DNA of 64,000 bases. It comes from Haplodiscus bocki. Taxonomy: Eukaryota. Below are positions 29,671-58,129 of the stretch, piece after piece; the first letter of the stretch is position 1, and the number at the start of each line of letters is the position of its first letter. Below the pieces are notes generated by a model. It saw nothing but the letters and a program-made list of their open reading frames with translations, made no database searches and was not told the origin of the DNA. The translations under genes were made by a program, and so were the position numbers. The stretch is taken from the NCBI GenBank assembly GCA_965655095.1, contig OZ296648.1, forward strand, positions 73,966,001 to 74,030,000. The letters run 5' to 3'.

Positions 29671-30628
29671 ACGTTCTTGAACTAACCTAGAATTTCCTTC
29701 TCGCTGAACTTTTATCTACTTATAATTTTTAGAACATAAGCACCGATCCACTGAAAAATATTAAAGACTTCTTATATTACAAATTCTAACAACCATTCGA
29801 TAAAAAATACTCTACTTTCTAGTATCTAAACGTACCATTTATGAATGTCGAGTATGTAAGGAATCAGGAAAAAATGAAGCGTTAGTAGAAACAAAGAAAA
29901 TGAACTGTTTACAAAGGGCCATGTGAATTTTTCACCTGAGAATTATAAAATAATTCACAAAAAATATTCCAGATTACCCAAATTCAAATAGGAAAATATA
30001 GTTTTTGAAAGTGCTAGTGACAAAGATGGCAGGACCAAACGTAAACGAACAAAAGCAATTCATGAGAGAATGCTCAATGAAAATCATTATCCGAGGGAGG
30101 TATATCACAAAATCAATGGTTTTTGATGATTGTTGCGTAGAAGTCTGAAAGAAGGATTGTAGAAAAAAAGGGCCGAAAAATGGTTAAAAAAATTATGAAA
30201 GTCTGGTTTTGCAACAAGATCTTTCAGCACGGAAAAATAAAAAATAAAAGTAAAGAACCATAATTGTATGAAAATCTTTCATTTGCTTTATGGCTATTGA
30301 GTGAGTGACTACATGTGGTCTTCAACTCAACCCACTCCAAACCAAATGGTATTAGTAATAAGAGAGTAAGCTGGTCGCATGGGGATTGAGGTCCCTCTAT
30401 TTGTTATGATGGTCTTTTGCGACCCGGGAGCCAAATGGAGCTCAAAAGCGGTGTTGAGGACGGGATATCTCGTCTCGGCTCCTATGTTAATACATGGGGT
30501 CAACATATTGAGATAGGGTTTTTCGGCACCATAACAACGTATTATGATAGGGTTTTTTTTAACACAACCCCATGGAGTAGGATAGGGTTCGGCAATACCC
30601 ACGCCCCTGAAAAAAAACGTTTTTCGGC

Positions 30629-32714
30629 ATCTTCTACAACCTCAAGAGATCAATGCCGCCCAGTGAAAACTATACTAATGACTGGCTTGAAAACTTTGCT
30701 CAGTTTCTATCATTGTATTACCGAAAAAAGCGCCAAAAACGTCAAAATGCCCCCTTCTATTATTCTTCCCACACCATGCACCTGCTAAACGTCCTCAACA
30801 CTACCGAACGACGCTGTGAGAAATGTCCCTCGGCCTTAAACTTGAGGAAAATGAGCGCGATTGCTCGCGACGTCAATATTTCTAACGAACTTGACACCGC
30901 CGTTTTTTGTGGACTCCTTCATGAAACGTAATAGTGGACTAAATGGCTGCTTCAAACTACAAAAAATACTCAAAACCTCGAACGTACCAAACGTCATGAT
31001 CCAAAACGACGTGAAACTTCAGCGAAATGTTGACATCGGCGAAGCCTTCAACGCTTCCTTTGCCAGTGTCTTCAACCACAGAACGTCAGCTGTCAGTGAC
31101 TTCAGTGATAATGAGATTAATGCTGTACAAATTACACAAACTGATGTTTTTGATGCGTTAACTTTGTCTACTCTTGGAAAGGGTCATGACGGAATCAGTG
31201 ATGACTTCCTGAAAACAAGCTGTTCCGAACTCAGCTTTCACGTGTACAAGCTGTTTCAAAGTATTCTACATGGTGGTATCTACCCTGAAGAATGGAAAAT
31301 CGCGAAAATCACCCCTGTATTCAAATCCGGTAAGAAGCAGGATGTAACATGTTATCGGCCCATTAGTCTATTTTCCAAACTCTCCCTCTCGTTTGAAAGG
31401 GTTAATTTTAAGAATTTGTACAAGTTCATTGCCCAAAAATTGTCCACTCGGCAATTTGGTTTTCTAAAGGGCCGAAGCACCATCACACAACTCCTACTCT
31501 TTCTCACTGAGGCTTACTACGCGAACGAGAAGAACAATGAACTGTATGCGTTCTATCTAGACTTAGCAAAGGCCTTCGACACAGTGCCCGACCATCTAAT
31601 CCTAACGAAACTCAGACACTTTGGAATTGGAGGTAATTTGCTCAAAATTATCGACAGCTACCTGATCGGACGAAAACGAATTGTTGAAATGATGGGGACC
31701 AGCTCTACTTTCCGTGTCATTATCAGTGGGGTTCCGCAAGGCTCTATCTTGGGTCGCCTACTCTTCCTCGTTTTCATAGATAAGTTGCCTAACAGCTGCT
31801 CTGAGTCCCTCATGTTCCTTTTTGCTGATGACTGCAAATCGATCAGCTCGTATCTCCCTGCCCTAGAGCGGGACTTCCACAGCTGTCTTCGTTGGGAACA
31901 TAACCTTATGACTTTCAATTTAAGCAAAACAAACTTTATCGTTTTGGTAAGAGTGCTCCAGGACTATCGCTAAACATCGAAATTACTGCTATCGCTTCTT
32001 CCAATACTGTCAAAGACCTGGGTCTTACTATCAGCTCTAACCTGTCCTGGTCAAGGCATATCGAACTCAAAGTTAAATCTGCGTATTCAATCTTCTACAA
32101 CCTCAAAAGATCAATGCCGCCCAACACCCACTGGCACACGAAGATCACTTTGTTTAAATCCTACATTTTTTCTACAGTTTTAAACGCCTCTGAAATTTGG
32201 TGCCCAAGTAAAACAGATTTGACACGTCTAGAACTTTTACAATCTCGTATGTTCAAATGGGCTTTCCCTGGATCCAACTACAAAGAACGCTTATCGAAAG
32301 CTAAAATGCTGCCCATAACGTTGGAAATACAGTTTCGATCGCTTATTCTCTTGAACAGACTACTAAACGGATTTTACAGCAATTTTCTTATTTTATCACA
32401 TATCTCTTTCACGATCCCAATTTCTGGTGCATACAACACCCGGTTATCTGAAAAGCCTATCTTCCATCTGCCGGAAGTCAAGAAGACACGAACGACCCAC
32501 GATTTCTTTTACCGAGTGCCAAATCTTGTGAAATACTTCCATGCAAACACGAATCTGGACATATTCAAAAACCAAGCTAGTTTCAAATATACTGCTGCGG
32601 CCGAGTTCAACAAATTATCTTTGTTAAATATCTGTAACCTCGAACAAGTACATGTAATTTTTAATTTCCCACTTACATTGCCTTCATAGCAATTCAAGTC
32701 TCTCTCTCTCTCTC
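30629..32714 (+). mobile_element. 5'-truncated LINE (CR1/L2-group RT) inserted in the Polinton TIR, with (TC)8 tail
   Basis: ORF 30861..31973 has YRPISL, QFGF, YLDLAKAFDTV, SGVPQGSILG and FADD; KDLG at ~32012; C-terminal ORF 32114..32689; (TC)8 at 32699-32714. No endonuclease domain. Confidence 0.92.
30861..31973 (+). pseudogene. Reverse transcriptase domain of the truncated LINE
   Basis: 370-aa open frame with all core RT motifs, bounded by frameshifts to the upstream (30653..30931) and downstream (32114..32689) parts of ORF2. Confidence 0.9.
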
Positions 32715-33126
32715 ACCCGAGTTAGGCTACTGTCCAAAATAGGTTTGGTTAGGAAAATCATTGGCACTGTGAGCCCGGGATGAGGTTCATTCGATTATAT
32801 AGGGCACTCCAAGGCATTAGGATTTCGATTTAATGTATCAAAACTTAATTGGTTTGATTCGCGCAGTTCAGTAGTAATGTGTGAGAAGTGGAGGGAGAAA
32901 CAAGAGGTCTGTTGGCGGGTTTTGAAACTGTTCGGAAGGAATACGGAATTCTTGCTGCGGATACTTTAACACTCGTGCGGTTACTTAATTACGGTAGCGG
33001 GTCTCCTTATACTGCTTGATGTTATGTGAAAAGGTTGACTAAAAGATTTAAAAAGCGAATTATACAGTATGAATTTGAACAAAAACCTCGTAAAAACAGC
33101 ATTTTTACATTGAAACTGTTAGGAGT

Positions 33127-33500
33127 TGACATCCAATCACTTATTAGAGATAGTTCATTGAAATTTTGAACTTCAGTAATTTCTTTTTGACGGAAGTTTA
33201 AGAGATGGAAAGCTGCATTAACCGCAAACACTAGCATGGGAGAGAATTTCTTCTGCCATCACTTGCTTGGGATGCTGTTTGGAAAGAACGGTGTTTTTTC
33301 ACTTTCAAGATGGTCTGCAAAAAATTTGCGTGACAAAACTTCGCTATGAATGTCCCTAAAAACTTTTGGGTTGCATGTTGATGAGAGCATGAGTGTCATT
33401 GTCAAGAGTTAGAACTTAGTCAAAGGGAAATGAACCAATGTAACGATGTTTGAGTAGCGGGTGTAACCAGTGAATACCTGCTGGAGAGGTACTTTAACTA
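33127..33500 (-). pseudogene. Polinton adenain-like cysteine protease
   Basis: Minus-strand fragments KHRYIGSFPFD*V..LDNDTHALINMQP...GHS...FFADHL...SVCG...AAFHLLNFRQ follow the adenain H/D/C order; position directly after MCP. Confidence 0.7.
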
Positions 33501-34775
33501 TTCTCTATATTCTATCCAAGAATACCAAACTTGCCAACTGCCACCGAATACAGTCTTTCCTCCTGTGACAAGGTTTCAGTGACGTGTTTTAGAGCAAAAC
33601 TGAAATTTAGGTCACGGCTCAGTGTTTCTCCAACTAATTCTGGGAATTGACAAGTCACTATAGCATTCGGCTTTGAAATCAAATCAGACAACAGTACCTA
33701 ATGGTTTTTGTTATTATCAATTGAAAAGGGGGGATATCATTTTGGAAGTTTAATGCTTTCATTGTCGGAACGTATAGGCGACATTTATCAGCAGCATCCA
33801 AGTTTACAAATGGCTGACCACCTCTGTGTGTTCTAATTTGGCTGAGATCAAATCAGTGATACCCGAATAGACTCTAAGTGTACGATCCACTGAATGCAGA
33901 GTTTTTATTCAATGCAGTAGCAACCCGCCGAAAAAAAACATCCTCCTAATAGTTTTCTTGGATGAACTGGTTTTTTCTGGCAGGGGTGATGAAAGACTTT
34001 GCTAGAAATTCCAAGCGACAGTACTCAACGGAAGTACATGCAAGAATGTCCTTTCGTTTTTTGTGATAATCGTCCTTGAGTGCAAAAGGACCATTGTAAA
34101 GTAAAGAATCAGCAATTCCAGGCCATACGTTGGGGTTTTCGCTGATCTTGTAAAAACTAGGTCTGGTTTTGATTAGTCTCAGCCTAATTTTCTTATTTGG
34201 ATATAGCAAATCAAAAGTGGAAGAAAAGTCAACTCCCGATTTGTTATACAAGATGGAGTTATTGGGTCTACTACGCATTTTCATTCTCCTTGTAGAAAAA
34301 GTTTGAGACTGGGGTGCTTCCATAATCTCGTCAAGAGACTCTTCATATTCGTGCCATTCGCAGTGCCATTCAAAACTCCCTTTTAATTAGAGATGGCTCC
34401 CTGGAAGTTGTTGGAATTGTCAGACATGTGAGCATAGAACACATTTGATTTGTAAATTCTCTAATTGTTGATGTACACGTCAACCTTGGGAAAATTTAGC
34501 CTCTTTGGCCTCCTGTCATGTGTTCCCTTTTAACTTACTTGATATTGTAAGTTTTGTAACCACGACCTATGATGATATTGAATCTCAGAGCCAAGTAGGA
34601 CCCTCTTAAATCAAGGTGAAGAATCCGATCCGTTTGAGTTTTTAAATCAGATGCAGTTTTCATCAAGTGTGTTGGTGGGATAAAACTCTCGTTCGAGGGA
34701 CGACAAGACATTGTGAACGAAAAACATTTTTCTTCAAGACTTCCAGAAAATATCACAAGAAAGTGGTATTGGAGT
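33500..34775 (-). pseudogene. Polinton major capsid protein (double jelly roll)
   Basis: N-terminal EFYPTNTLDENCI*F..TDRILHLDLRGSYLALRF; ORF 33946..34323 (LLYPNKKIRLRLIKTRP...AKSFITPARKNQFIQEN); downstream traces SAFSGSY, FDLSQIR, LYVPTMKALNF, VLLSDL, PELVGETL. Confidence 0.8.
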
Positions 34776-34788
34776 TTTTATGACAAGA

Positions 34789-35155
34789 TTAGTGAGAAAC
34801 ATTTGCAAAAAACTCTCTTCCCGACCGACTCATTTTTTCTGCAGATTTTGTTGTATTGACTCTGCTTGTAGTATTTTTATTGCTACCACTGCCCAACTCT
34901 TTCGTCGGACTTTGTCTTCCCATGCTCTTTGCTGCCCTCTTACGGTTTTTTCTACCACTGACAACCTCTGCAGTCTCTGGGGCTGCAACTTTTGACAAGG
35001 TAGCACTCACAAGTTTTGCAGCTGGGACGAAAAATTTACGTAAAACTGGAATTGCAGTTTAGCCAATATCTTGTGTAAGTAGAATGAATCCCTTTCCACG
35101 CTGTCGACCGATACTTCTACGGAAAAGAATCTGTACTTGCCTTGAAGCAACCATC
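34789..35155 (-). pseudogene. Small basic Polinton protein (core-protein-like, with R.RG.G motif)
   Basis: MVASRQVQILFRRSIGRQRGKGF... continuing VAAPETAEVVSGRKNRKRAAKSMGRQ...LGSGS, located between minor capsid and MCP. Confidence 0.55.
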
Positions 35156-35169
35156 TTGAGGCGTCTTTT

Positions 35170-35970
35170 CAGTGAAAAAGTAAAATTGGTAGTTTTTCCA
35201 GACACTGGAACAAGTCGAGTAATGCCAACGAATACAATGGAACTTTTTTGCATCTTCTCTCTCTCGAATCATTGTGAATAGTATGAAGAAGGTTTTTGAG
35301 CAGCAGTTTAAATTGTGGGTTACCAAATATTCGATAGATCATGCATTGTCCTGCAGAAATTTTGTCCTCAGCTTTTGGCTTGGAATTGAAGGAAAGTAGC
35401 GCAGCAAAGGACCCTTTGTGTCTCCGATGATATTGTACTCAAATCAAGTCTGTGTATAACAAGAGGGGGTGTATGCGGACAATGTCACAAACAAACAAAG
35501 GCTTGTTGTGACTTTTTCCTCTCAACTCTTCTCCGAATTCTTTGGCGATAATTCCAGAAATGTGTCCCAAGTCCGCAATTAAAAACGCAAGATCCGATCC
35601 TCTGCGAGGTAGATATCACTTTCTTTGCTTTTTTTTCGGACAGTTTTACTGCGAGAAGTTTTTCGCTTAGGCTATGTTTCTCTCAATATAGACTGCTTGT
35701 AGTAAAAAAGCCGTAATCGAAAACAAACTCCGGAATTTTTGGGTTCCAGATAGCAAAGTTCGAACGTGTTTGAGAGTTTTGTGTCAAAAAGCATAAATTG
35801 TCCATCTGTTGCATAATGATACGTTATTAGGTGGGATTTTTCTGAAATTGCAATCTCTTATTGCCACTCCAAATTCAGTTGCTTCGGCAAAAAACATGTG
35901 GAAATGCCGAGTGTCTGGAAAAAATTCTCAAGTTCATTAAATAAACTCTTTTCAAAAACGAATCCGATGT
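35170..35970 (-). pseudogene. Polinton minor capsid (penton-like) protein
   Basis: N-terminal FFPD...FLPKQLNLEWQ*EIAISE; C-terminal IVRIHPLLLYTDLI/EYNIIGDTKGPLLR...F..LLKN..HTIH.D.R, matching the Y.D......GD....LLR penton signature. Confidence 0.7.
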
Positions 35971-35989
35971 TCAATGACTTTCGTCAACT

Positions 35990-36880
35990 TTTTCTGATAA
36001 AAATTTCTTAGTTAAATCTCATGTTGGGTGTTTTTTGTTGTATATGTAAATAATTTTCTGAAAAAATTTCCATGAATTTCAAAAAATTGCTGTGTAAGGC
36101 GTTGCCTATAAAACATCTTGAAAAGTATGTCATTTTTGGAGATGCAGACTGTTTTTCCAGTTTGAAATTTTGGTTTTCTGTTTTAACATAGACATTTGCT
36201 GTAAAACAATTAGAAAAAGTCGGAACTTTTGACATCTTTCTGTTTCAAGTTCAATCAAAACTTCTTTTTAGAATTCAAAGTTGTGACAAACTGTGGTAAC
36301 TTGTGAACGTACTTCAATCCGTAAGCTTCCAAGTAGCAATAAAGAACATATTTCAATTATCGTGTTTCGCTTTTGGTATATGTAGCTTTAGTCTCATTTG
36401 TTGTAGAATACATTTGTACTCCGTTTGCATTGCCAATTTATCACAACTCTCCAGCAGTCTCAATCCCCCTTGTCAAAAAAAATTCTTGGGATGGTTTTTT
36501 TCAATTCATAGTTGAAACCACTCTGACAACCTCTTTGGCATTTTTCGTCCCAATTCATTTGCTTTAAAAGTTCGATCAAACAGGTCTTGACAAGAAGCTA
36601 AATAGGTTACACCATTGCGTTCCCTCGCCAGTGTATCCACAAATGAAATATCTATACATGAAATTCAATCTTTGAACTTAGCAAAAGCCTGCATTCCCTT
36701 GAGTTTTCATGTGGTGAAAGTAAAATTCCTGTAGCCAGTCCTCGAATGTAAACATTGTCTAACCTTTGACACTGGAAGGTTGCCAGCCTGTGAAAAACTA
36801 TGAGCAGGTCCATACGCAGTAGCACGTTGAGAGTACAACTTTTGCAATTTTTGACGTTCAGATTTTTGAAGTGACACTGC
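35990..36880 (-). pseudogene. Polinton rve-type integrase
   Basis: KLQKLYSQRAT/AYG...SKVRQCL...AFAKFKD*ISCIDISFVDTLA..NGVTYLASCQDLFDRT...DKG.ETAG...KHDN*, heavily mutated. Confidence 0.75.
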
Positions 36881-37500
36881 GTCGGCTCTCTTAAGTTTGG
36901 CGTTCTGACTTAAAACCAGAGTTGGAAAATTGCCAACAGCGTCAACTTAAAAAAAGTAAATATCCAGGATATCTGCGTTTTTTCGACGCAGTTGTTAAGC
37001 AAAATCCGACAAAAGCTTTACAGTTTCTGCACGAAAGAAACATAAAGCCTGCGTAATTGAAAGCTTAATACGCAGGCAAAACAAAACTTTTTACTAAAGA
37101 AATTGATTTTTCCAAACAACTTTCCAGTCTTTTCCTCCTTTACCGACTGAATTTGGTACGTGGGGTTTTGCTCGGATACTTTGAAAGTTCCTGCTTTGAA
37201 ACTGACTGGGTTTTCAAAATGTTGTTGTACACAGAAGCAGGAACAACAACAAGCTGCTCAAAATTAAAAAAAGAAGGCTAATGACAAGAGAAGTGGGAAC
37301 TTTTGTTGTTAGTTGCAGGCATTTTTAAGACACAAAAAACGTATCTTTTTGTTTCGAAGTTCCTCTTTTTTTTTAAAAAAAAAACAAAATTTGGTTTCGG
37401 ACGTTGTCACGTGACCTTTTTAAATGCTTTGCAAAAATCCCGTGAATATATTTACTATACCCTTGCAGAGAAACCGGAGAAACCTTTGTTTCAAGACTCA
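36880..37500 (-). pseudogene. Two small conserved-looking Polinton ORFs between ATPase and integrase
   Basis: RFLCKGIVNIFTGFLQSI (37500-37420) and LVVVPASVYNN..TQSVSKQEL...LRIKLS...LLSDFA*QLRRKNADI (37260-36900); position matches the small genes that flank Polinton ATPases. Confidence 0.45.
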
Positions 37501-40500
37501 ACGCATTGCCTGCTTCTTTACTGTATAGTTCATTGGAGCAATTGCAGAGTAGAGTGATTTTGCGTGCTCAATATCTACAGACTTTAAATGCACTAACAGA
37601 TCAGAACTAGATTATTTCGATGAGATTGATCTACTTTTTGTACAATAACGTAATCTGTTGTCTATAAGTGGCAACAAATCAATCAATATTTGCCCGTAGT
37701 GAACAGACGTTGAGTCTCGATACCAGGCTATTGGCTCTGACCCCGACGCAAAAGTGCACTTAGCAGAACAACTTGCATCGCATGTTGGAGGGATTTGTAG
37801 AAGACAGTGTATGTGGTTTGTAGCACAGCATTTAGACCTAGTTCACTTTGATGAGAAGAATTGTGCTTGTCGTGAGTAAAACTGAATCCGCGATGTGTTT
37901 CAGCAGTCGTATTTTCAACATAAAAAATTTACTTGCAAAATTATTCACAAAAATCATCGAAGCTCAACAATAACAATGTAGAGATATTTTTACTGAATCA
38001 CGGAATTAAAAGTTTACACCGTATTTAACAACGAGATCTCAAATGTTTTTTTTTGCATAATATCAAAGAAATGTTAATATGTTGTTGAGAAAACTAAAAT
38101 TTTTCTTAGTTTGGTTGTAAAATCCTATATGTTAACCACCTGTAAATATGTCCCAAATGTTTTATGTCTCGGCAGACCAAAGAATGATGTAAAGACGCAA
38201 CTCTTACGCAGAAAAATACTTCTCGTTTTTGGTTCTTTTCAGCTCTTCGTTCCCATTGTAGTTTTAGTGATCAGAGGCGACGTTATCACATTTAGCAACA
38301 TCCTACCTTGCTTCAACGCGCCATTGAGATTCTGAGTTATTGTCAAGCAGTTCCGCAAGTTCATCAATTCATTAATGCTTTATTTGCATCAGCTTACAAT
38401 TGTCCTTTTTTGGCACGAACAATTTTGAGTGGCAAACTATTTTGTTCACTGTTTTGGCGAGGATGAAAAAAACAATAATGAGCTACATGAAAACCCAACC
38501 CATAATACTGATTTGTCACAATCATTCGCTTCTGAAATATAACCAACTAAATAAAAGCAGCAAAAAGACAAGATAACATTCAGAGATCTTGAACTGGTTT
38601 GTCCCAAAAATCCAACGATTTTCACTCTCGATTGTTGTTGCCAAAGACACTTTTGCTTAACTTATAAATATTTTTATGAACAGTCATCTAGCTTCGATGC
38701 TTTCTTCCCAATTTTTGTATCTTAGGACAAAAAGGCTCAAATTCAGAAGACTTCCTTACCCGGACACAAACATTACAAGGAACAATAAAACTTTCACAGC
38801 TCCAATCACTACATTTTCCAGATATTGAACATTTCTGCCTTTCAATCTGCACAGTCAAAAAAAGTCTTGTGTCGGAATGGGTGGCTGGACCGAATCAACA
38901 TTTCTTCATCTGCTTTGAGATTCAAAAGATCTTCAATTGCGGAACAGCCATGATGTTACAAAGTTTTACTTATCTGTCAACAAAGTGTTCAGAATCTTGC
39001 AATTTCTGGTCCCCTCCGCAAAAATTTCAACCTCTACATTTTAAGAAAGAACGTTTGTGAACTCACTGTTATCCAAACTTCCACTGTTCCGCACACATCC
39101 GTGCAAATTAACTCTTCACCAGAAGACTCGTCTTTATGGGTTTGTACCTTTTTGGAGGACGCAAAAAGTAACCTTCGTAGCAGGCATTTTTAAGACACAA
39201 AAAACGTCTCTTTTTGTTTCCAAGTTCCTTTTTTTTATAAAAAAAGACAAAATTTGGTTTCGGACGTTGTCACGTGACCTTTTTTAATGCTTTGCAAAAA
39301 TCCCGTGAAAATATTTACTATACCCTTGGAGAGAAACCGGAGAAACCTTTGTTTCAAGACTCAACGCATTGCCTGCTTCTTTACTGTATAGTTCGTTGGA
39401 GCAATTGCAGAGTAGGGTGATTTTGCGTGCTCAATATCTACAGACTTTAAATGCACTAACAGATCAGAACTAGATTAATTCGATGAGATTGATCTACTTT
39501 TTGTACAATAACGTAATCTGTTGTCTATGAGTGGCAACAAATCAATCAATATTTGCCCGTAGTGAACAGACGTTGAGTCTCGATACCAGGCTATTGGCTC
39601 TGAGCCCGACTCAAAAGTGCACTTAGCGGAACAACTTGCATCGCACAATGGAGGGATTTTCAGAAGACAGTGTACGTGGTTTGTAGCACAGCATCTAGAC
39701 GTAGTTTACTTTGAGGAGAAAAATTGTGCTTGTCGTGAGTAAAACTGAATGTGCGATGTATTTCAGCAGTCGTATTTTCAACATAAAAATTTACTTGCAA
39801 ATTTATTCACAAAAAACATCGAAGCTCAACAATAACAATGTACAGATGTTTTTACTGAATCACGGAGTTAAAAGTTTACACCGTTTCTAACAACGAGATT
39901 TTCAATCTTTTTGCATACTATCAAAGAAATGTTAAGAATGTTGTTGTGAAAACTAAAATTTTTCACAGTTTGGTTGTAAAACCCTATTTTTTAACCACTT
40001 GTGATTATGTCCCAAATGTTTTGTGTCTCGGCAGACCAACGCATGATGTAAAGACGCAACTCTTACGCAGAAAAATACTTCTTGTTTTTGGTTCTATTCA
40101 GCTCTTCGTTCCCACCGTAGCTTTAAGGATCGGAAGCGACGTTATCACATTTAGCAACACGCTACCTTTCTTCAACGCGCCATTGAGATTCTGAGTTATT
40201 ATCAAGCAGTTCCGCAAGTTCATCAATTCATTAGTGCTTTAGTTGCATCAGCTTACAAACATCCTTTTTTGGCACCAAAAATTTTGGGTGGCAAAAAATT
40301 TGTTTCACTGCCTTGGCGAGGATGAAAAAAATACTAATGAACTACATGAAAACCCAACCCAGAATACCGAATTGTCACAATCATTCGGTTCTGAAATAAA
40401 ACCAAATATATAAAAGCAGCAATAGGACAAATAAACATTCAGATATCTTGAACAGGTTTGTCCCAAAAAAGCCAACGATGTTCACTCTCGGTTCTTGTTG

Positions 40501-44830: not shown

Positions 44831-47759
44831 TGCTTCAAAAGCTGACATGTTTTCGAATGGAAGGTGAAAAAAGTGTTATAAAAACACATGGTGATAATCC
44901 AATCAAGTGACCCAGCAAACATTTATTATGTCCTGGTTCTTTCATGTAACAGTAGACAGGGCCTTTGCCAGTATGCAACAGCACTGCTGCAGTTGCATCA
45001 TGTACTTTCGAATATAGCTTAAATACCATGAAGTGCTAATTTATAACTTCCAAGTTTGAATCCCTATACCCAATGGTTGCATATAACTCAAAACTTTGAT
45101 CCATCTCACGTAAAGCGACTCCTTCAGCCCAACACCCACATGCACATAGGAAAAAGTCTTCGGGAGCACTATTCTGTTCAAATGACATTTTCACTTTCGA
45201 GTAGTATCGGAAAATGCTCTTTAGAACGAGAAAATGAAGTCATGACGAAAGTTGTTTCAATTGTGAACCGTCGATTCCTCCAGTATATTGCATCGTCTGG
45301 AAAATATGTCATGGTAGCTCGAAAGATAAACTCGTTCAGAGGAAATCTTTTTGTATTCTGTCGTTTCTAATTCCTTTTCCTAGTCTTTCAGTCATATGTT
45401 GTTTCGATAGCTATAGGAGACAAAATTCAGTTTGTCGGTATTAGTCTGGTATTTCCTATATACTTTTATTCCACCCTTGTGTTTTCTTCATTTTACACAA
45501 AACGATTCATCTCTTGAATCAATCTTTTCAATATCTGGCAATTGTTGAACATCTACTAGAGTTAAATTATTCTTTCGGAAGAAGTTGCGGGTTTTTTAGG
45601 CTCAACATGCCAAAGTTCCGTTTTTTTAAACTTGAGAAAACGGTTTTTTTCATCTCCAAATCTTCACCTCAATCTGATTCGACAAAAAGAATAAAGACGC
45701 AAATTGAAACATTTCGATTACTTTCAAAAGACATTACAAGCGAGTTGATTAATAATTACTTTATACTATACAAAACTGATGAATTCAAGCAGAAATTTGC
45801 ATTCTCGGAGCTCACAATTCACATGGACAGTTGGTTTGAAATTTCTCTTTTCCTTTTTTCATAAAAGTATCGGGACTTCAGCATAAGAACTCTGTGGATG
45901 ATCCCCATTGTATCGCAGTGGAGTAACACACTTTTTGTCTGGGGTCGGTCCAAAGCTTTGTAAACAAGCTTGAGTTGTGTTCCCATTTTTGGAGCATTTT
46001 TGGTATCTGTATGGTAAACAAGTTCTGGTCTCTGCCAATGTTTTTTGCTGCAACGAACAGCTCTTTCCTCAACTTTAGAGATTGTTTGAGAACAGATTTA
46101 AAAATTTGTTTGGGACCAAGCAAAAGTCTTTGTTGTCATCTTCTTTGAACACTCTGAGTTTTACATCCAGATAGTCGGAATCATTCTTAGACCCAGAAAA
46201 ACTACAGAATCTGATTTGGCAATTTCCAAAATTCACGAAGTCGGTCTAATATTTTTCGTACGAGGAAGCATTCGTTTTGTAATCCAGGGCGTTTGGTCTT
46301 TAAGATAGACCGCTGGTTGCTGGAAAAAGTTGTTTTTTGGGAAAAAAATTTTAAGAAAGACTTTGGAGGTTCGAAATGTTGCCCAAACTTTCTTTTTTTT
46401 CTCGTTTTCTCATGATAGTTCCAAATAAGGAAATCTTTACCTTTTTTGGTCATTGAGATGACCTACTTTCATGTAGGGTGCCTGTTTTTCGGAAAGTTTG
46501 TAAGAGCAAGTAAAGTTTTGTTTTGTATATTCAATTGTTCGGAAAAGAACTCAAAAATCAGACAGGAGCTTTAAAGTGACAAGTGATACCCTATTTCGAT
46601 TTTTTGATTCACACTTTTCAAAAAACAGTCTTTTTTTCTGCAAACTTATATGAAAGATGTATTATATGTAAAGAATACTGTATTGACCACCACGATGACA
46701 AGCTGTGTTTTCTATTCAAATTCTAGAAAAAAAACATTATAGTGAAAGGAGACGCTGTTGAATTACTTCTGAAGATCGACGCAAGCTGTCTGACACATCA
46801 ATACGTGGACTGCCTCTATACACTGTCCAAAAATTGATTCAATGGAAAATATCTTGCGTGCAGAGGGCAAGTATTTGAAAAGGTGTAGAAAGTAGTCTAC
46901 TTGAAATGAAAATAGAAGAGTCGAGAGAAAACCTAGCATTGCAAGCAAAAGATTCGTCGGAAAAATTTACAAAAAGCATTTCTTGAGCTGCTTCTAGAAG
47001 TCAAAATCAACCCAAACCACCGGATCAATGTTTCCAGAGCTAATTGAACAACATAAAAAGGACAACCTTCGAAATGGAATGTATGAAGTGTGTATAGTTC
47101 ATTTTAAGGTTGTGGCATTTATGATACTTGTATAATTTGTCCTAGAGCTTAATATTTATAAAACAACCATTTCTTCTAGCCCAAAATAGATCTGTTATAT
47201 TGAAAAAGTAGTGCACATGAAGTAGCCAAAAAAACCTAACATCAAATTTAAAGCAATAACGAAACCAAGAGTTAAACAGGCTCCCTTGAATTGCAGGGAA
47301 AAAAACACTATTTTTTAAACGTTTTCATTTTTGTCTTCGCGGACACCTCACCGGATATCGTCCCATATCCAATCTAAATAACGCATAGATTCTCTGTACG
47401 CGTCAGTGTCTTTGAGCGGCTCGAACTTTTTTGTTTCTCCGTGGAACCAATAGAAGATAAACCTACGAGAAAACTTGATTTTCCTTTTTAGAAAAGTCAA
47501 ATTCAGGCAAACAAAGTTAAAAAGATGGAACATTTGATCCAAAGGGTTCTGTTTAGAGCCTCTATGAAATTTTTTTTTGTCAAAAGAAAGGGACTTGTTC
47601 CAAATTGCTAAGGTAAGAGAAGTTTCTTCTATTATACTGGGTTAAGGTATTTTACCTCGAAACGAACAGTTTCCCACTTTTAGCTCTGTACAGCAAACAG
47701 GTATTGATACTGAAAACAGAAAACAGAAATGGTCCTTTAGCAAAAACTTCGAAACTGAC

Positions 47760-48200
47760 TAAAAATCAAACATTGCAGAAACTGTATAACAACGCTCCGT
47801 TTTGTGATTAAAACTGTTTGAAACTTGTCAGAGTTCGAATCAATTTTTTTTAAACGGGTCAGATTCTGAAACAAGCTGTTTCTATTGTGTCTGTTTTTCA
47901 AAGGAAGTTTATCTCGGGAAAACATATTTTGGAAAAAAGTATGCCTTCAGAAAGTCACGTTTTGATTCAATTTACCCCTTAAAATTGACAAAACTTGAAT
48001 TTTGTTTCCATTTTTAAGATAAACGTTTCTGGCGCAAAATCTCTCAGAAAAAAATCACATTCGTGTCAAAAAAGCACAATTTTTAGTTTTTGAATTATAA
48101 AAAAGCAATGTGTCAGATTTTGAATCGTAAAGTGTACAATGGGTCAGATTCGGAAACAAGTTCTTTGACAACGTGTCAGACTTTCAAAGAACAATTTTTG
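47760..48200. repeat. Cluster of short degenerate repeats (gtcagatt(c/t)tgaa), probable small non-autonomous insertion
   Basis: Motif variants at ~47826, 47857, 48112, 48142 and 48174. Confidence 0.45.
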
Positions 48201-50539
48201 CCTTTTGAACGGGAAATCCTACCGAAATCTACGACATAAACTGTTCGAATCTAATTCCCTTATAATACCAGAAGCAGTCACAGCTTGAAAAAACCTCATC
48301 CCAGAATTGACACAATTCGCCGTTCAAACAGTCAGCTTTGTATTCATTTTCGCAAATTTTTTTCGACAATGTTTTTACACCGCTGTCCGATTTTTTTCTC
48401 CGTATAGACTTTATGAAAGCAAAAACTGGCTAACACTAAAAGTGCTGGAAAAACTAGAGCTTCCATAATCTTACACATTTCTGATCAGTTTGCAAAGAGG
48501 TTGTGATAATATTGAAACATTCAACCTACTTGTAAAATATTTACACACACGCGCACTCTGAACTTTTCCGAACAAAACCCTATATACAAATTGCGCCATA
48601 TTTTTTGTTCCTCTTCGAAACGGATGATTTCTGAAAAACCCGGAAGGCTCAGTGGGAAGCTTAGACGCTGGAGTTCTTAGAGAAGTTTTCTCCTTGTCTT
48701 CTTCCTCATGCGACACAATAGGAAATTCTGATGGTAACCCATTTCAAGTCGTTGAAGATTCATGGTGCAAAGGAAGTACCGCCGCTGATATAAAAGCAGC
48801 ATTCTTTTGTAAATGAAGATTTTGCCTGAAGTTGTTGTCCTAACACAAATGGAACATTTCTTTTTTCTTAACTTTGGGCGCTTCAATTGAGACATTAAAT
48901 AACAGTTGCTTTTTGCTTGTCGGGTAACAACTTCATGTTTTTTGGGGAAAAAGTTTGCTTTATTAGTTTTTTTATTCGTTCTTAAGCGCTGCTGTTTGGT
49001 AAAAGGTACTTTGTTTACAAGCAGCCACGCTCCAAACGTTCCACAAACATAGATGGTTATCGCAGTGATTACATGAGAGTCAAAAAACTTGACTTTTTTT
49101 CAACGCACCCTTTGCTGAAACAGGGCGCCTCACCAATTGCCTCTCTTGTTGCGATTTTTTTAGATGGCAAAGTTATTTTCACAAAATGCACACTGGGGTA
49201 GCAAAAAGGTAGCTGTGCTTGAAAAGATTGTAGCCTTTCAGATGGTTAATGTCAACAATCTGTGCAAAAGGGTGTCACCGTGAATGCCGTGTTTCTTGGT
49301 GGAAAAAATACACTGGTTGTTTTTTTTCAAACAGGAGAAAGTCAACGTATTTGACTCTCGGAAAGTTATCGATTAATCGCTGATAAAACGTCTACTTATT
49401 ATTTGGAGCCAAAGTCAGTTTTGGATCTCGGCAGAGCAATTTGTAGGGATTTGCCTTGTTTGTTGGATTTCACGAACTCATGAAGGTTGTCTAATACGAC
49501 GAAAATTTCCATTCTAGTGAAGGATAATTCTTTTTTGAGAAAAAACCGTAGCTGGCTTTGTGTGTCGCTAAATCGGAGTAAAAGGATTGCAAACTTGTTT
49601 TTGTTGGAACCTCTACTGACTCGAAATATCCGGTGATGCTATTGAGAAAAGTCAAATATGATGTGTTGAAAAAGAACATCCTCGTCTGTTTTGTGCAGAA
49701 AAGCTCTCAAGAACTTCTTCGTAGACTGATAATAGGTTGCAAAAACCGTGAAGAGAATTTTTGACAGACATTGACTGTTTTCAACTGAAAATGTTTTGTA
49801 AAATGAATTCGTCCGTTGTGAAGAGATAAAAACTACGGGGATTTTGAGTTTCAGCGAACACAACCCGGGCTTGTCTTCCAATCAAGAAGTTTTGAAAATA
49901 ACTTTTAGAAAAATAAATTGTGAAACTGTTGCTCAGTGGGAAATAACATCGGATAACGAATTTTCTCTGCTGATGAAGTTTTGTCATGCATGTTGTCGTT
50001 CCAACTCTTTTAACTTCCCCAATATTGTCATTATGTGAAACTTACTTTTTTAACCTTTTCATGGAGCCTATTGGCACTTGATAGGAAAGTGTTCTAAGGA
50101 TACTGAAAAATTATTCGTTCAAAATGAACAATTTACTCCAAAATTTGTCTCCTTTTCAGTCGAAAGTTTCCCACCTACTGGAATTTATCAGACCAGCTGT
50201 CGCCTCAACAGTCGCAATTGATCCACTTGTTTTTTTGTTTGAGACAAAATGGATGTCCCATTCAACAAAACAAAATGTTTCTTTTGAAAACTATTGCTGC
50301 TAGTTGGAACGAATGAAAAAGTGATTGTCGACTGTTTTTTTTGCTTCTTGAACCAATGTCTCCCTTTCTAGTCAAATTAAACAGTTTTTCTAGAAAAGGC
50401 AAGAACTATTAAATAAAACTTGCTTAAAGTTGTCCGCCTTTGTTTTTTATCATTGCAACAGTCAAATTGCTAAAATTTTCAGGTTTTTGTCAGAATTTTA
50501 TATCAAACTTTTCAAATAAAACTGCTTTCTTTAGCGCGA

Positions 50540-53500
50540 AAGGAAAAAAAGCCCCAAATTTTGCAGAATGCACACTTCAGAAAAAAAACAAGTTCATTTT
50601 TTTCATGTAATAAATGTTCAGTTAGAACACTGTTTTGTGCTAAATGTCCCAACTTCTCAACACGTTCTGAGGTTGATCTCAACTTTCGTATTTCAAAAAA
50701 TCATAGCGCATCAGAACCGAAGCGACCTCCCCAAGCGTCAACTTTATTACCAAATTTTTGTTGCTTTTTATTTGCGGCGGTTTCACAAACAGAAAGTGCA
50801 CAAAGAGTAAAGCGTATCGGAGGCCAAAAATGTGGATGTGACAAAGTTGTTTAGAATTATTGACGATGAGAGCTTAAAAGAAGAACTGTAAACGTGCAGG
50901 AACTTTCTTGTGGACCCTGAGATGAAGAAGGGAAGGCATTGATTCTTCAATTTGGCCATGGAGAAACTAGATGCACACACTTTGAGCCAAAAAGTAGACA
51001 GAGTGTTCGAGAACCTCAAGTGTGCTATAAACTTGAAGTTTTCAGTTAGCCCGGTACTCAAGAATGTAAAACTGGGAATTTTTGGCACTACCATGGACAC
51101 AAAAACAACACTTTGACGGAAGGAGCAAAGTTTGTGGCCGTCAAAAGAGATTTGGTATACATTAGGAATGTGTTGATTAGCACTGATGTTGTTGAAGCGT
51201 GCACAAAAGTCTGAGCATTTTTCAAGTGTAAATCTGCAAATACATCAGTGCACTGATTTTGCAGCACTACTCAGTGAAATTTCCATGGGTTGTGTAGACG
51301 CAGTAATGTAATGCCAGAGCCATTGAGGAAAAATCACTCCGGTATAATTGTGTAACTTACGAAGGGTTAACCAGAAAACCGTACAACACAAACTATGTCT
51401 TTCGATAGCTCTCGCTTTGCAATTTCACGGAAATGGGGGACTTAGGGAAAAACTTCAATATTCTTCAATTTGTTCCGAGAAAAAAATTAGAATAACTGGT
51501 CCAGCGGGTTTTGAAGGTGTTTGCATGTTTGATATTTCAATTGTACGACAAAAGTTTTGCTGGTGAAGCAACCTCTGGAGAGTTTTCCAGGAGAAAATTT
51601 TCAAACATTCCAACACTGTTCGACCAATACGTTACAACAGCCACATTTGCTACGTCTCCAAAATCAAGGCTCTCTTCAAAATATATCTTTTTCCAATGTG
51701 TGGTCAGTTTAAGAAGTAGGCTGGAAACCTGGAGAAGTGTTTTACAACTCGCAAAGAACGAGTTGAGCATTTCTACCGAAAAACGTGTATCAGCTTCGTG
51801 AAACACTGTTTAACAAACTCGACACGTTTGGTATCCATAACAGACAAAATCAAAAATTTTCTACAATTTAATAATATATAAATTTGAGTCAGCCTGTTTG
51901 GAAGATGAAGATTCCAAAGATACAGAAACAAAAACAACGATTGCCAGCGCATCGCAATTTTGTTATCGATATCATCTTACTTGATACGAGAATCCAATGT
52001 TTTCAGCTATCTGAATGCTTGTGACTTGGTGTCATCTTTCCCCGATGCTTTGGAGAGTTTGGCCGTGCAGGGTAAAGCTCAAATGAAACAGAAGTTCCTT
52101 TAGAATGAAACCTCATTCAAAAGTAGACTTCCACGTACACAAGAAGCACAAAATCAACGTCGTCGCAGTGGTTGTGTTGGTATTGACGCACCAAACAATA
52201 GTTCAGCAACACGCTTTTTGGAAGTGCAATTTAGCAACTAAGTGACTTGTAAGAACATATTGAGAGTTATTGAATACCTCATCCTTCCTTATTTTCAACA
52301 GTGGAGGCCACGACTTCAACTTTATCCAGATTTACATAGAACCTACTCTTGCAAACGAGAGAGATATTGAATCGATTGTTATCAAAAAAGCCAAGGACTT
52401 TGACTCGTTCGATTTTTGTGATGCTCAACTTTCTGACATTTTAAATTTTGTTGGAGGTGCTACCAATTATGATTTTTTCCCGAAACTTCACAATAAATCT
52501 GAGAAGAGAGATTTCTTTCCGTGCGAAAAGTTTCTTTCCCCAGACGAATTGCACAGTTAGGAGCTTCCTCCTTACGAAGTCTTTAACATTTTACTACGAA
52601 AATACAATCCTCTTGAAAAAAGTATCTTGACTACGAGAAGCCTATCTGTTGTTTTCAAAGACTGAGTCTGGCCTGGTCAAAATATTGAGGTTCTCTCAAA
52701 TAGCACGTACGGCAGCAGAGAACTAGTCCCAAATTTTTGAAAGTGTGGGGCAGGAAAAGGTTCAGTCATTCAAAGACTTTTTGCGCTGGTACAGTAACAA
52801 AAATATTAGTTCAACATTGAAGGCAATAAAAAAAATGCTCGAGTTTCATCACGACAAAGTTATTGGCTTGCTCAAGCTTGGATGGACTTTAACCAAACAA
52901 GCCAACATTTGCTTGCACGGCTCCGCCAGTGGAAAATTTTATCCATTCACAGAAAACCATAAAAGTTTGCTAACAAAACTTCATGGAGACATTGTTAGAT
53001 GGCCGTCAAAACGATTGAAGGTAAAGCGATTGTTGACAAGACCAAGACCTACATGTCTACGAGTGTTTGCCAATCAATTGTTGGAATAGATACTAAGCAG
53101 TTTCAGTTTTACTCAATGTGTCAACCTACGCGTACTGGATTCCACAAAAAAATCCGAGTTTGACGCAGATTTGCCCAGATTATAGACTCGACAAAACAAA
53201 TTTTGAAGAGTCAACAAAATGGTCATTTGATATTTTCAATGAATAGGGCAGAATTGTAGAACTGACAGTTCTTCACTACATGAAGTCAGAAAACATTGAC
53301 TGTTTAAATGCAGATAGGTTTTGTGCATATGGCAACACAATGCGTGAGGCAATGGGTTGATTTTGTTTTTACTGTTCTGGTCAAGCAACACGACCGGCAT
53401 TAACTGAAGAAGATAATCAACAAAGAACTGAAAAAGGGAAACGGATGGATTTAGGAAGCAGTATATCGAGGACAAAAGTTGAATCGTTGTCAAAACGTGG

Positions 53501-54812
53501 AAAAGTGCATGGTGGAAACCCTATAAGTCTGATGTGCTAGTAAAGGAACACTTGAGAGAGTCTTTACCATACAAGCGTCCGTTTCGTCAAGACCAGTTAT
53601 TGGCCAAAATGAAACCACAGGCTTTATTAGGTTACACACAGTTTAATATCAAAACTACAGGCCAACTGACGAAACAACTTGCCAATTTCCAGCCGATTTT
53701 CGAAATTACAATCGTCCGTAGACATGATATTGGTCCACTAGTGCCAGAGTTTGCTGAGAAGGAAGGATTAAGGTCCCAACCGCAACGAGTGTTAATTTTT
53801 AGCGTTCAGCAATTGTACTATTATTACTCGCTTGCTACTGCTCTGTTCGGACCTGGGATTTGATGCAAAAAATTCTACCGCTTCGTTGATTACACCCTTG
53901 TGGAAAATTATAAGGACTCTATGCAATCTGTTGTCAATGTTCGTTGTCTCGGAAGCTAGAATCCCTACTCAAGTATGTTTGCAGAAACTATGAAGGTGCT
54001 TGCAAACAGCTCGAAACTTTGTCAAGTTATTGATCTCTGTCGCCATTCAGTTACTAGCTACATGACTGATAAACAAACACTCGCAGCGATCAACATTAAA
54101 TTGTTCAACAGACTGTGGCTTGTCAGCGTTCAACTTAACAAGGTAGAGCTTGCAAAATCTGAAGTCGAACATAAAGAAACAATCAAAAAAGGCTTTTTTA
54201 TTTTGCAGTACGCAAAGTTGGGTATCTTGGTGCTCTGCTACAATTTCTCCCTGGAATTTTTCGTTACGTACAAGAAAAAGTAGATGGAAATGAATACCGA
54301 TTCGAGCTATAAAACCTTAACAGAAAAAATGTGTGATTGTATACGAAAAGAGAAAATGCAAAAGTGAGAAAGTTTACGTAGCAACGACTGGACTGATTCG
54401 TTCACTGCAGACGCTTGCAGCAACTTCTTTCCCTGTTCCTGTTGGGCTAAATATAAAAAACAATATGGAAGAGAACCCGATCTGTTCAAGAAAGCATTTC
54501 GATAAACTCAAATAATTTTTTTGTGCAGCAGTAGAAACTGCTGTTTCGACTTTTCAAGCAACAGGTGTAAATTCAGCAGAGAAGGCTCAAACAAATGACA
54601 GTTTCGAGACAGTGGGAATAGAAAGAAGGCAAAGTTTTGAAAAATGTCGAAAGAAAGAGAAAAAAAAACTTCTACCAAAGGTGGATTTCTCACAAAGAAG
54701 CTTTTTGCAGCAACCTACGAGCAGAAAAATAAAAGACTCTCCTACTTTTCTTCTGATTGAATTGTGGAGACAGATGGAATTCATACTCTTCCAATCCAAG
54801 TTAAAAATCAAT
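50540..54812 (+). pseudogene. Protein-primed family B DNA polymerase of Polinton B, with N-terminal C2H2-like fingers
   Basis: CAKCPNFSTRSEVDLNFRISKNHS; ExoII IFNSGGHDFNFI; FFPCEKF; ExoIII SFKDFLRWYSNKNI; motif A SIVGIDTKQ...SMCQP..TG (~53075-53140); motif B ETMKVLANSS; motif C MEMNTDS (54284-54304); REPDLFK; terminal DGIHTLP (~54773-54793). Confidence 0.9.
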
Positions 54813-54939
54813 AAAACTGAGTGTTTTTCAAATTTATGCTCCCTGACTCACTTCCTTATCCCTTTTCAATCTTTCTTCATTATATCAAGCAATATAAAAT
54901 ACCCATTCCCTTATTAAAAAACCGGCAGTGTTAAAAAAT

Positions 54940-55727
54940 TATCCGCAGGCATATTAAGAAAAACGTAGAAGTAATAAATAGTCCGCACGTGTAATTACTT
55001 ATCCGCACGCGCAATTAACTATACGCACCCAACAAATCTGACTCTCTCCGTTCATGTTCCAATTCCGCTGACAAACTTTTTGTTTCCCCCGTCCCCACTT
55101 CTGCTCACACCTTGTTACTGAACTGCTGCATTCAAACCAAACATTTTTCAATACACAAAACCCACTTCTTAATGCATTGTTATGCCAATATATGTCGAAG
55201 TGAACTTCTTCTCGGGTACACAATGTCAAACCCTATCCTAACACATTGGGGCAGTGCCAAAAAGTTTTTTTAAACATTGGAAAAGTGCCGAAAAACCCCA
55301 ACCTGATATAAGAAGGTAGTGCAGAAAAACTCTATCTTGAATCTTTGGGGTGAACATTATCTTGAAGTGAACCCTGGCCACATAGTCTAATATTGCCGAG
55401 ATGCCCCATCTTGGGGTGGGAGTCTTTCATAAAACTTTCGTGTATCGTCGGGCAATGCCGCAAAACCTCAGTACATTGGAGTGGCTCGAGTATTGACGAA
55501 CAACCGCATTACAGTGGTGTGTCTCGGGTAGTACCGAACTCGATCTTCATACATTGGGGTAGTGCCGAAACGCCTTTTGACACAATGTAGTAACATCCGT
55601 GCCGAGAAGTGACCTCCAATCCTAAACATCGCATGTGGGGTGCATTGGGCTTTCTGGTCGCTATAGCCTATCTTTTTACATGGAGAGACCTCCATCCCTT
55701 GTCTTATTAGCTCACTCCCTCACTACT
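54940..55727 (-). repeat. Right TIR of Polinton B with internal ~38-40-bp sub-repeats
   Basis: Ends ...ctcactccctcACTACT. Sub-repeats of cattgggg(t/c)agtgccgaaa type at ~55244, 55274, 55316, 55451, 55527, 55551 and 55598. Confidence 0.85.
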
Positions 55728-58129
55728 GGTGTTGCTTATTCAGAGCTAAGACTAAGACAACAAGGACCCAATTGGAAAGAAAACCTTGCTATTTGTCGAG
55801 CATCAAACGAGTTGTGAACCAGTAGTCTGCGATTTTGCGTGTAGATGCCGACATGCAACAATGAAGTAACAGTTGATGTTCAATTTAAGATTCTCCCTCA
55901 GAAAAAAAAATTGTCATGGGACGTACTGAGCTGACAGTGGCGATTCGTCAGCAAAATTACTTGAATTGCGGCGGTTGACTTCCAGACAACGCTCTTGATA
56001 TCGACCGAGACTTTTTAAAAATCAGAACGGAGATGTGTTTCTGGAACTTTTGTAATCCATAACAGAAAATCATCGCACTTTTTCAAAGGGACAAAGTCAA
56101 CTCAAAGACACCTGAATGTCCTCTTTGTTGCTGCTACGTTTTTTTGAACCATTTTTGGCACTGTGATGTTAGATGGGAAAAACTGGAATCATCAAGAAAA
56201 GGAAAAAATTTCGTTGCAAAATGGGAGTTAAATTGTACGGAATCTATTTATTAGTTTTTAGTACTGCTACCAAATTTCAACTTCAAGTGTCTCTTCTAAT
56301 TATATCTGTGGTTTCCGACGTTTTGGTTCAGTAAAAGTCACTGGAAAAAGGTTGAAAACATCAGCATAATCGATGAAACCGGCTTCAAATGAGGATTTAC
56401 ACATTGGGCTCTTTAAAGTAGTGATTTCCTCTTTTAGTGCTTAATATTGAAGAAATAACAAAACCATTCTGTTACTTCTCTAGAGTTGTGATTTTTGCCG
56501 CAACTTTGTTTCTGTGAAACTTAAAACATAAAAGTTGACAGCGGTAAAAAAACCTGAAAAAGAAAAACATTTTACAACATGCATATTTAAATTTAGGGAA
56601 CTTGTTTATTAGAGACTCTCAGCTGAGAACTGTAACTTTTAAAAAATATGAAAAACTGCGTTTTATCGGAAGGTTCAGCTTCCTGAGAAAATTTGTCAAA
56701 TGCGGGACTGATCAAAAAATTGAAAACTTTTTGCCATTTAAAAGTTTGAAGATAAGGAGTTTAACAAATTGTGTTTCTATCTACTGGTGTTTTGAACGCT
56801 TATTGGCATCTTCGCAAAAATTGTGCAGTTTTTGACAACTTCAGCAATTTGAAATTCCGTGAGAAAGTTTTGGAAGCCGCAATAAAATTGATGTCGAAAC
56901 TTGTAACAGTTTACGAGTGTACGTATTGGGATCATGACTTTGAGGATTTAATACAACAAAATCTCAGGATGAAAACACAATGAATTTTTGCGCAGTTTTG
57001 GTCACAGAAACACTTGATAGAAGAATGATAAAAGCATCGAAGAATTGAGAAACAAATTTTGCCAGGTGAGGTTCCAGAGCAAGGAAAATGTTTGAAAGTC
57101 TCTAAAACCGCTGATAAGTAAAGGTTTCTTGAAGTGTCCCGAGACACTGCTACATTTCCGGCAGTACCGTCACCGTACTGCTGCTGCTGTGATTAATTTC
57201 TAACCATTTGTGACACCGTTATCTTTGGTGGGAAAAATTGGAATCATCAGAGAGTGGAAAAACTTGAGAACAATTTGAAAGTTTGCTTGTCGGAAACCTA
57301 AACATTAGTGGTCAGAACAGCTACAGGTAATAGTGTTAAGAACAAATAAAAGTTCAAAACATAATTATTCTTCTCAAACGATTGTGAATTGTCGGATAAT
57401 TTGTGTACTTTGAAACTGGGCAAAGAAGAGATGACAGCGACAAAAAAAATGAGACAGCTTGTTGCAATTTGATAGTTCAAATCTAAAGAACCCATTTCAT
57501 GGTATTTCTTATCACTCAATAGTTTATTCGTTGAAAGAGTCTAAGAAAATGAAACATTATTGGAACTGTAAAGTCAAAAAGACTATATCGACAGAAAGAA
57601 CTCATCAAAGTTCGAAAAAGTGTGCGGCAAAAAGAGTTTTCAAACGTTACGAGACTAGTTTAAACTGTTTAGATCAGATGAAAATTAGAACTCTAAATTC
57701 CGAATCAAAGGTGTTGTGCAGTTTCCGGCAACTTCGTGCCTGTAAAAATCCACGGATAGCTACAAAATTTTTGTGGAAACCTCTTAAAATCTGTGAGTCA
57801 GGGCAGTGGGAGTACTTTTTAATGAGTTTACAAGAGCTGAAAGGTAGACATTTTTCAAAAAAGTTTTCCGCACTGCGAGAGTTTCTGGAAAAAAATTAAA
57901 TTAAACACAGCAAGTAATGCGAAAAAATGGTGACCAGATGGAAAAGCAAACTTGTGGTGCTTGCTTAAAATTGCTTACAAGTTCTCATAAGTATAGACTT
58001 CAAATAGCCTTTCAAGGAACTGTAACGTTTGTGTTTTTGGGCACTGTGCAACCAAATAGAAAAAAATTTAACATCTAGCTGAAATATGAAAGTACAGGTG
58101 CAGGGACCCTGTTTTGTAGTGTTTATTGT

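Follow-up and report, generated by a model that had tools for sequence, protein, structure and literature searches.

The window analysed here is a stretch of 64,000 nucleotides from Haplodiscus bocki (GenBank assembly GCA_965655095.1, contig OZ296648.1, positions 73,966,001–74,030,000 of the forward strand; all positions below are counted from its first nucleotide). It contains a decayed element at 30354–55727 (25,374 bp) which very probably represents one Polinton/Maverick (polintovirus). A preliminary description, made from the letters of the window, had proposed a single insertion of this class with its core gene set, and the ends, the target-site duplication (TSD) and the traceable gene order bore this out.

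Termini, target site and size

The left terminus at 30354 reads AGTAAT and the right terminus, read on the minus strand from 55727, reads AGTAGT; the (AGT)2 end motif is matched at six of six positions on the right and at five of six on the left. The termini are flanked by a 6 bp TSD (30348–30353 and 55728–55733), the two copies of which are identical at five of six positions. For a fixed pair of hexamers a match of at least 5/6 has P = 0.0075 given the composition of the flanks. Both ends and the TSD are recoverable, as had been claimed.

The left terminal inverted repeat (TIR) is split by a long interspersed nuclear element (LINE). Its outer part (30354–30629, plus strand), beginning with AGTAAT, aligns to the reverse complement of 55727–55455 with 67% identity over 264 columns, and its inner part (32716–33082, plus strand) aligns to 55261–54824 with 71–73% identity over the aligned columns. 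The right TIR (54824–55727, minus strand) is about 900 bp long and has a perfect (AGT)2 end. The inverted homology was recovered by self-BLAST in three pieces: 30354–30630 with 55727–55455 (E = 1e-17), 32748–33016 with 55242–54967 (E = 1e-26) and 32955–33082 with 54948–54824 (E = 9e-8). TIR identity was 67–73% over aligned columns and 63–68% with gaps counted, close to the two-thirds first estimated by eye, and the local alignment was significant, scoring 142 where 300 dinucleotide shuffles averaged 28 and never exceeded 41. The Kimura two-parameter (K2P) distance of the pair is 0.35–0.43. The net lengths are unequal, at about 640 bp on the left with the LINE removed and about 900 bp on the right. 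Inside the TIRs (30354–30630 and 55260–55727) a TCGGCA-like motif recurs in short repeats, which may lie behind the length difference of about 190 bp.

When the LINE (2,086 bp) and three surplus units of a tandem array (about 5.58 kb) are subtracted from 25,374 bp, about 17.7 kb remain, the same net figure as that given at the outset. The Polinton/Maverick criteria applied were a TIR of 100–1,500 bp, a TSD of 5–8 bp (typically 6 bp), an (AGT)2//(ACT)2 or (AG)3//(CT)3 end motif and a size of 13–25 kb. The element agrees with all four, taking its net size, and a protein-primed DNA polymerase B (pPolB) and an rve integrase, also expected of the class, were found through its relatives. The word 'complete' used for this genome holds for its extent, which is present in full, and fails for its genes, every one of which was disrupted where tested.

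Gene content

Gene labels were transferred from database relatives (numbered P0011 and so on below), using tblastn and frameshift-aware alignment to the window. On the minus strand the order is ATPase, small open reading frames (ORFs), integrase, minor capsid, basic ORF, major capsid protein (MCP) and protease, and pPolB lies on the plus strand; the order and strands first described agreed with both kinds of alignment. Every gene that was aligned to a relative is broken.

The pPolB pseudogene (50528–54802, plus strand) is of full length, with 24 frameshifts and 24 stops relative to P0272. The alignment covers residues 31–1446 of 1446 with 49% identity over 1,370 codons and a score of 2,831 (reversed-DNA control 49). 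The region has 106 relatives among 7,240 candidates; 13 of the 106 were flagged for PF03175, and the three flagged relatives that were rescanned all scored above the cut-off. PF03175 matches were moderate (E = 1e-7 to 1e-11) in some relatives and were absent from the four longest scanned. Three relatives of 1,444–1,447 residues (with 13, 115 and 65 cluster members, which may derive from more than one assembly) each carry the Exo I–III, Pol A–C and KxY motifs. Among six long pPolB relatives an OTU Cys motif was found in four and the His motif in all, using a pattern of our own. The top BFVD fold match of a pPolB relative was a viral pPolB (E = 4e-4). Against PDB folds the pPolB model gave no match at E ≤ 0.001 and no B-family polymerase was listed, although the palm is poorly modelled so that absence is not implied; the pPolB profile gave no match to PDB sequences. 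N-terminal C2H2 zinc fingers were observed in the full-length relatives P0272, P0275 and P0283 (E = 4e-7 to 2e-3); neither term, zinc finger or C2H2, occurs in the body of the two pPolB papers searched for them.

A Vsr-like nuclease domain lies between polymerase motifs A and B of the relatives. Residues 255–374 of the P0274 model superposed on Escherichia coli Vsr (PDB entry 1cw0) with a Z-score of 8.2 and a root-mean-square deviation of 3.9 over 104 aligned residues (next row Z = 5.9; Foldseek probability 0.97), and residues 235–415 of this model were mostly confident. A phmmer match to Vsr fell at the same place with E = 0.09. The pPolB of the window is colinear across this region, and its equivalent of the insertion lies at approximately 53206–53560 (plus strand). 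An insertion of about 140 residues related to Vsr in pPolB has been described as a marker of group I Mavericks in the Kapitonov–Jurka scheme (cited in PMC10328495), and such an insertion is present in the relatives.

The integrase pseudogene of the rve (retroviral) type (35960–36900, minus strand) is 45% identical to P0131, which matches rve above the cut-off (E = 1.2e-8); rve matches were obtained in six of the 35 relatives scanned. The predicted identities of pPolB and the integrase are confirmed by these family matches on relatives. Between the ATPase and the integrase lies a region of small conserved ORFs (36890–37490, minus strand), to which P0219, P0232 and P0123 align. The only PHROGs matches were weak ones, to endonucleases and transposases.

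Predicted capsid module

The MCP pseudogene (33506–34786, minus strand) is of full length, with six frameshifts and ten stops relative to P0011. Residues 1–449 of 449 are covered with 59% identity over 419 codons, and the score of 1,073 compares with 32 for the reversed-DNA control. The region has 870 relatives among 1,056 candidates. Searches with the MCP gave no Pfam match and no PDB sequence match. The size and position of the gene fit a capsid role; the label itself follows a weaker lead, an Atlas assignment to DJR-like_dom PF21738 (24% of the cluster, score 0.98, 228 features). Most of the Atlas neighbours come from eukaryotes, among which arthropods, echinoderms and nematodes are the commonest.

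Downstream of the MCP on the same strand is an adenain-like protease pseudogene (33130–33505, minus strand), with three frameshifts and one stop in the aligned part, which is 55% identical to the C-terminus of P0060 (score 195, reversed control 28). A weak Peptidase_C5 match (E = 0.071) was obtained in P0045, one of three protease relatives scanned together; a fourth gave no match. Comparison of the protease and of the MCP–protease region with PDB sequences gave chance matches only. On the other side of the MCP lies a small basic ORF (34789–35100, minus strand; 19% Lys + Arg, 6% Asp + Glu; no Pfam match) at the place where vertebrate elements have the PW gene. It is followed by a probable minor capsid (penton) pseudogene (35126–35960, minus strand), labelled from position and size only. 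This is a conserved gene of about 270 codons between the integrase and the basic ORF; P0228, P0234 and P0260 align to it at 37–48% identity, and its relatives gave no relevant family match.

From this gene set we infer that the lineage made virions. The ancestor might instead have been a self-synthesizing transposon only, with a vestigial capsid module and no virion. In favour of this, Maverick particles had not been observed as of PMC8097293, and the capsid labels given here are leads rather than solved folds. Against it, a length of 440–455 residues without a stop was found in 28 of 120 MCP relatives listed, one 90% cluster has 530 members, and a His/Asp/Gln-Cys catalytic pattern is kept in the protease relatives. 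Open capsid-module genes in relatives are not expected of a vestigial module, and we regard a transposon without particles as unlikely.

Evidence for a single insertion

Both flanks of the element belong to an old host repeat of which a second copy lies inside the window. This uninterrupted paralogue (59375–61198, plus strand) lies outside the element and serves as an analogue of the empty site: the left flank can be followed as far as 60516 and the right flank takes up again at 60521, with alignment scores of 71 and 97, and the first and last 150 bp of the element did not align (scores 22 and 22). As the two flanks are adjacent in the paralogue, one insertion is supported. The K2P distance between flank and paralogue (0.36–0.43) is about equal to that of the TIR pair. 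The host repeat family is degenerate on both sides (21865–30353 and 55728–64000), with internal sub-repeats and, on the right, a periodicity of about 4.8 kb.

Two conditions were named at the outset that would refute the proposal: a TIR alignment without significance, and halves derived from different families or insertions. As far as both could be examined, neither refuted it. The alternative of the second kind is a chimera, in which a capsid/integrase half and a pPolB half from two insertions or subfamilies were brought together by ectopic recombination, or by a nested insertion followed by deletion. It would account for TIRs that are only about two-thirds identical and of unequal length, for a TIR divergence slightly above that of the stop-codon clock, and for a middle of 5.7 kb with no assigned genes. 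The 5/6 TSD and the contiguity of the flanks in the paralogue argue against it, as does the lesion density, which is alike in the two halves (48/1370 in pPolB and 16/419 in the MCP; Fisher p = 0.76). The relatives of the two halves also share contig sizes: six coincidences were found between the 120 listed MCP relatives and the 106 pPolB relatives (offset control mean 0.036, maximum 2 in 2,000 offsets), which indicates, indirectly, that MCP and pPolB relatives lie together elsewhere. Read-through ORFs of decayed relatives cross the same junctions as those seen here, namely ATPase to small ORFs, small ORF to integrase, integrase to minor capsid, and MCP to protease (5/120). The best-relative identity does differ between the halves (49% for pPolB, 59% for the MCP), but this gap arises because pPolB relatives are more diverse among themselves (62–94%) than MCP relatives (median 83%). 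A chimera is accordingly considered quite improbable.

We conclude with high confidence that the element is a single Polinton/Maverick of the VSR-bearing group I type, that a single integration placed it in an old dispersed host repeat, and that it has since decayed neutrally. The copy is inert today.

Several observations weigh against this reading. None of the nine core read-through frames of the window itself gave a relevant Pfam match, and the minor capsid, ATPase and protease gave no family match above the curated cut-off. The Atlas recognition value of the MCP (2188) lies below the benchmark of 2300, and an AlphaFold model of an MCP relative, built with 37 close sequences, scored 30 in the predicted local distance difference test (pLDDT) and had no usable fold; the mean pLDDT of the P0274 model was 49. 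The right TIR contains about 190 bp for which the left has no counterpart. The paralogue junction is four bases long, compared with nine predicted for an empty site with a single TSD and 15 for no duplication, and fits the single-TSD site to within about 5 bp, which is approximate rather than base-exact. The per-arm TIR divergence (0.17–0.21) reaches or passes the upper limit allowed by the stop-codon clock (0.12, confidence interval 0.08–0.17); since this clock probably undercounts, the excess is read as mild and not as a contradiction. Finally, the interior at 44756–50500, 5.7 kb presumed to hold accessory genes, contains no confirmed gene.

Pfam searches of this interior (six minus-strand frames, two plus-strand ORFs and 37 ORF pieces) gave no credible match, and no fetched relative protein matched it. 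Over the read-through frames and the 47 short ORF pieces searched in all, Pfam gave no relevant match, scattered matches at E = 0.002–0.09 being taken as chance. The accessory genes placed on the minus strand by the preliminary description are presumed. A k-mer strand test of 44.7–50.7 kb was rejected as a test, its values lying within about 1.5 standard deviations of control bins. ORF pieces at 45750–46270 (minus strand), which have no Pfam match, may resemble a PC4-like single-stranded DNA-binding accessory gene.

Tandem array, LINE and order of events

A tandem array of four units of about 1.86 kb occupies 37309–44755 (minus strand), each unit consisting of a broken ATPase-like gene together with about 1 kb of upstream sequence. 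The packaging ATPase-like pseudogene lies at 37590–38230 (minus strand) in the first unit and at about 39450–40085, 41305–41935 and 43165–43795 in the others, the starts being approximate. Database relatives were found for the C-terminal half of the gene only. An Atlas lead for the relative P0243 (residues 1–100) pointed to Pox_A32 (13% of the cluster, score 0.93, rank 17) and is weaker than the MCP lead.

The units are 91.6–93.7% identical (K2P 0.06–0.08, compared with 0.35–0.43 for the TIRs), with a microhomology of a few bases at the junction. They form a mosaic, units 1 and 3 grouping against 2 and 4 in the first 800 bp and units 1 and 4 against 2 and 3 later, and they carry private indels. 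ATPase relatives align in all four units, with the same frameshift in each relative to two independent relatives; a Walker-B-like motif is likewise present in all four and is closely followed by a stop in every case. The shared frameshift and the shared stop indicate that amplification followed inactivation of the ATPase. The longest minus-strand stop-free stretch in any unit is at most 76 codons.

A second, young tandem array of four 1,329 bp units (22240–27559; 98–99% identity, K2P 0.011) lies inside the host repeat and may itself be an assembly artefact. That the ATPase array is an assembly artefact, conceivable given such a local duplication nearby, or a selected (domesticated) amplification, as its centring on one gene might suggest, is highly improbable: its units differ by 6–8% and have private indels and mosaic sites, unlike collapsed or duplicated reads, and selection at the protein level is refuted by inactivating lesions common to all four units and the want of an open ATPase frame.

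The LINE in the left TIR (30630–32715, plus strand), which is not part of the polinton proper, is truncated at its 5′ end, has a (TC)n tail and matches RVT_1 (E = 1e-22); no TSD was evident. Since it keeps long open stretches (372 and 261 residues without a stop), it looks younger than the polinton. At its 5′ junction a 34 bp segment (30629–30662) agrees at 33 of 34 positions with a stretch further downstream in the LINE itself (32090–32123), like the product of a template switch during integration.

The order of events follows from the K2P distances, which are similar for the TIR pair and for flank and paralogue, smaller for the ATPase array and smallest for the 1,329 bp array. In the course of events that we propose, which follows what is established for the family, the rve integrase would have attached the ends of the TIRs to host DNA, leaving the 6 bp duplication. 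A pPolB polyprotein (terminal protein, vOTU protease, exonuclease and a palm with the Vsr-like insertion) would have replicated the linear genome, with protein priming at its (AGT)2 ends, and the MCP, minor capsid protein, ATPase and adenain would have built, filled and matured the particle. In this copy the aligned genes lost their frames at a similar rate and the LINE landed in the left TIR. The 1.86 kb segment with the ATPase, already broken by then, was amplified four-fold, probably by a microhomology-primed duplication and subsequent unequal crossing-over.

Other features of the window

A Copia-like remnant lies at 757–2486 (weak RVT_2 match, E = 9e-4, with an RNase H-like piece seen by eye) and a LINE remnant at 14197–16749 on the minus strand (weak endonuclease match, E = 0.012, with an ORF resembling a reverse-transcriptase C-terminus by eye). 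An old direct duplication pairs 8028–8837 with 9673–10485 (60% identity over 840 columns, E = 2e-37). No Rfam match was found in the window, and in a scan of bacterial and archaeal genomes none of 75 pattern matches was confirmed.

Significance

The element is a well-preserved but ordinary fossil apart from the four-fold repeat of a broken ATPase gene. It offers a clean and datable virus-like fossil with a readable order of insertion, decay, LINE insertion and post-mortem tandem amplification. The value first assigned to this copy for reconstructing its family was set too high. Most Mavericks are degraded (96% of 3,511 vertebrate loci; PMC8097293), and fossils with annotated pseudogenes have already been published (PMC8502044). 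The database already contains uninterrupted MCP and pPolB relatives, so that knowledge of the family does not hang on this one copy. The listed relatives are ENA predictions, and the host-specific, probably unannotated family suggested at first is a supposition. The fossil leaves the view of Polintons unchanged and is more useful for the family to which it leads, one of high copy number in which many MCP and pPolB genes are uninterrupted. If copies of this family are complete and expressed, they would bear on whether animal Mavericks form virions.

It is possible, and we suggest it tentatively, that this fossil stands at the old end of an undescribed and very large invertebrate polintovirus radiation with VSR- and zinc-finger-bearing pPolB, rearranged modules and hundreds of young open copies. 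If so, elements that are active or were so recently would be joined to deep fossils by a dated series within a single host lineage, which would be a tractable place in which to seek Maverick particles. Among the papers listed by literature searches on acoel Mavericks and polintons none described the family; Repbase, Dfam or the supplements of Jeong et al. (10.1101/2023.08.22.554363) may hold it. The host may be an acoel. In one acoel, Mavericks account for 4.5% of the genome (PMC6451197).

Comparison with known systems

The element differs from vertebrate Mavericks in that its ATPase lies on the integrase strand, upstream of the integrase and outside the pPolB module. The modules are both directed outward, an arrangement noted for the cane toad, and not toward the centre. 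The N-terminal C2H2 zinc fingers of the pPolB relatives (E = 4e-7) and a host that is probably an invertebrate also set it apart from group I and vertebrate Mavericks.

In other respects it resembles them. The (AGT)2//(ACT)2 ends, the 6 bp TSD, a size near 17 kb (intact vertebrate Mavericks average 16.9 ± 1.7 kb) and the fossil state are those of group I/vertebrate Mavericks, the TIRs lie within the vertebrate range of 46–1,447 bp, and the module of integrase, predicted minor capsid protein, an ORF in the PW position, predicted MCP and predicted protease is in the vertebrate order (PMC8097293). The Vsr-like insertion in pPolB is shared with group I Mavericks (PMC10328495). Molluscs and a marine nematode have VSR-bearing pPolB2 Polintons with which it shares this insertion, the predicted core gene set and the 6 bp TSD (Jeong et al., 10.1101/2023.08.22.554363). 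The grouping schemes of these last two papers differ, and likeness is stated here by shared features and not by placement in a tree.

Alpha and Beta adintoviruses are told apart by the class of their PolB (pfam03175-type or divergent), and PF03175 matches among the relatives, moderate in some and absent from the four longest scanned, do not discriminate between the two. With both classes (PMC8502044) the element shares an OTU-type PolB, an rve integrase, a predicted set of adenain, FtsK/A32-type ATPase, hexon and penton, and an occurrence as degraded relics.

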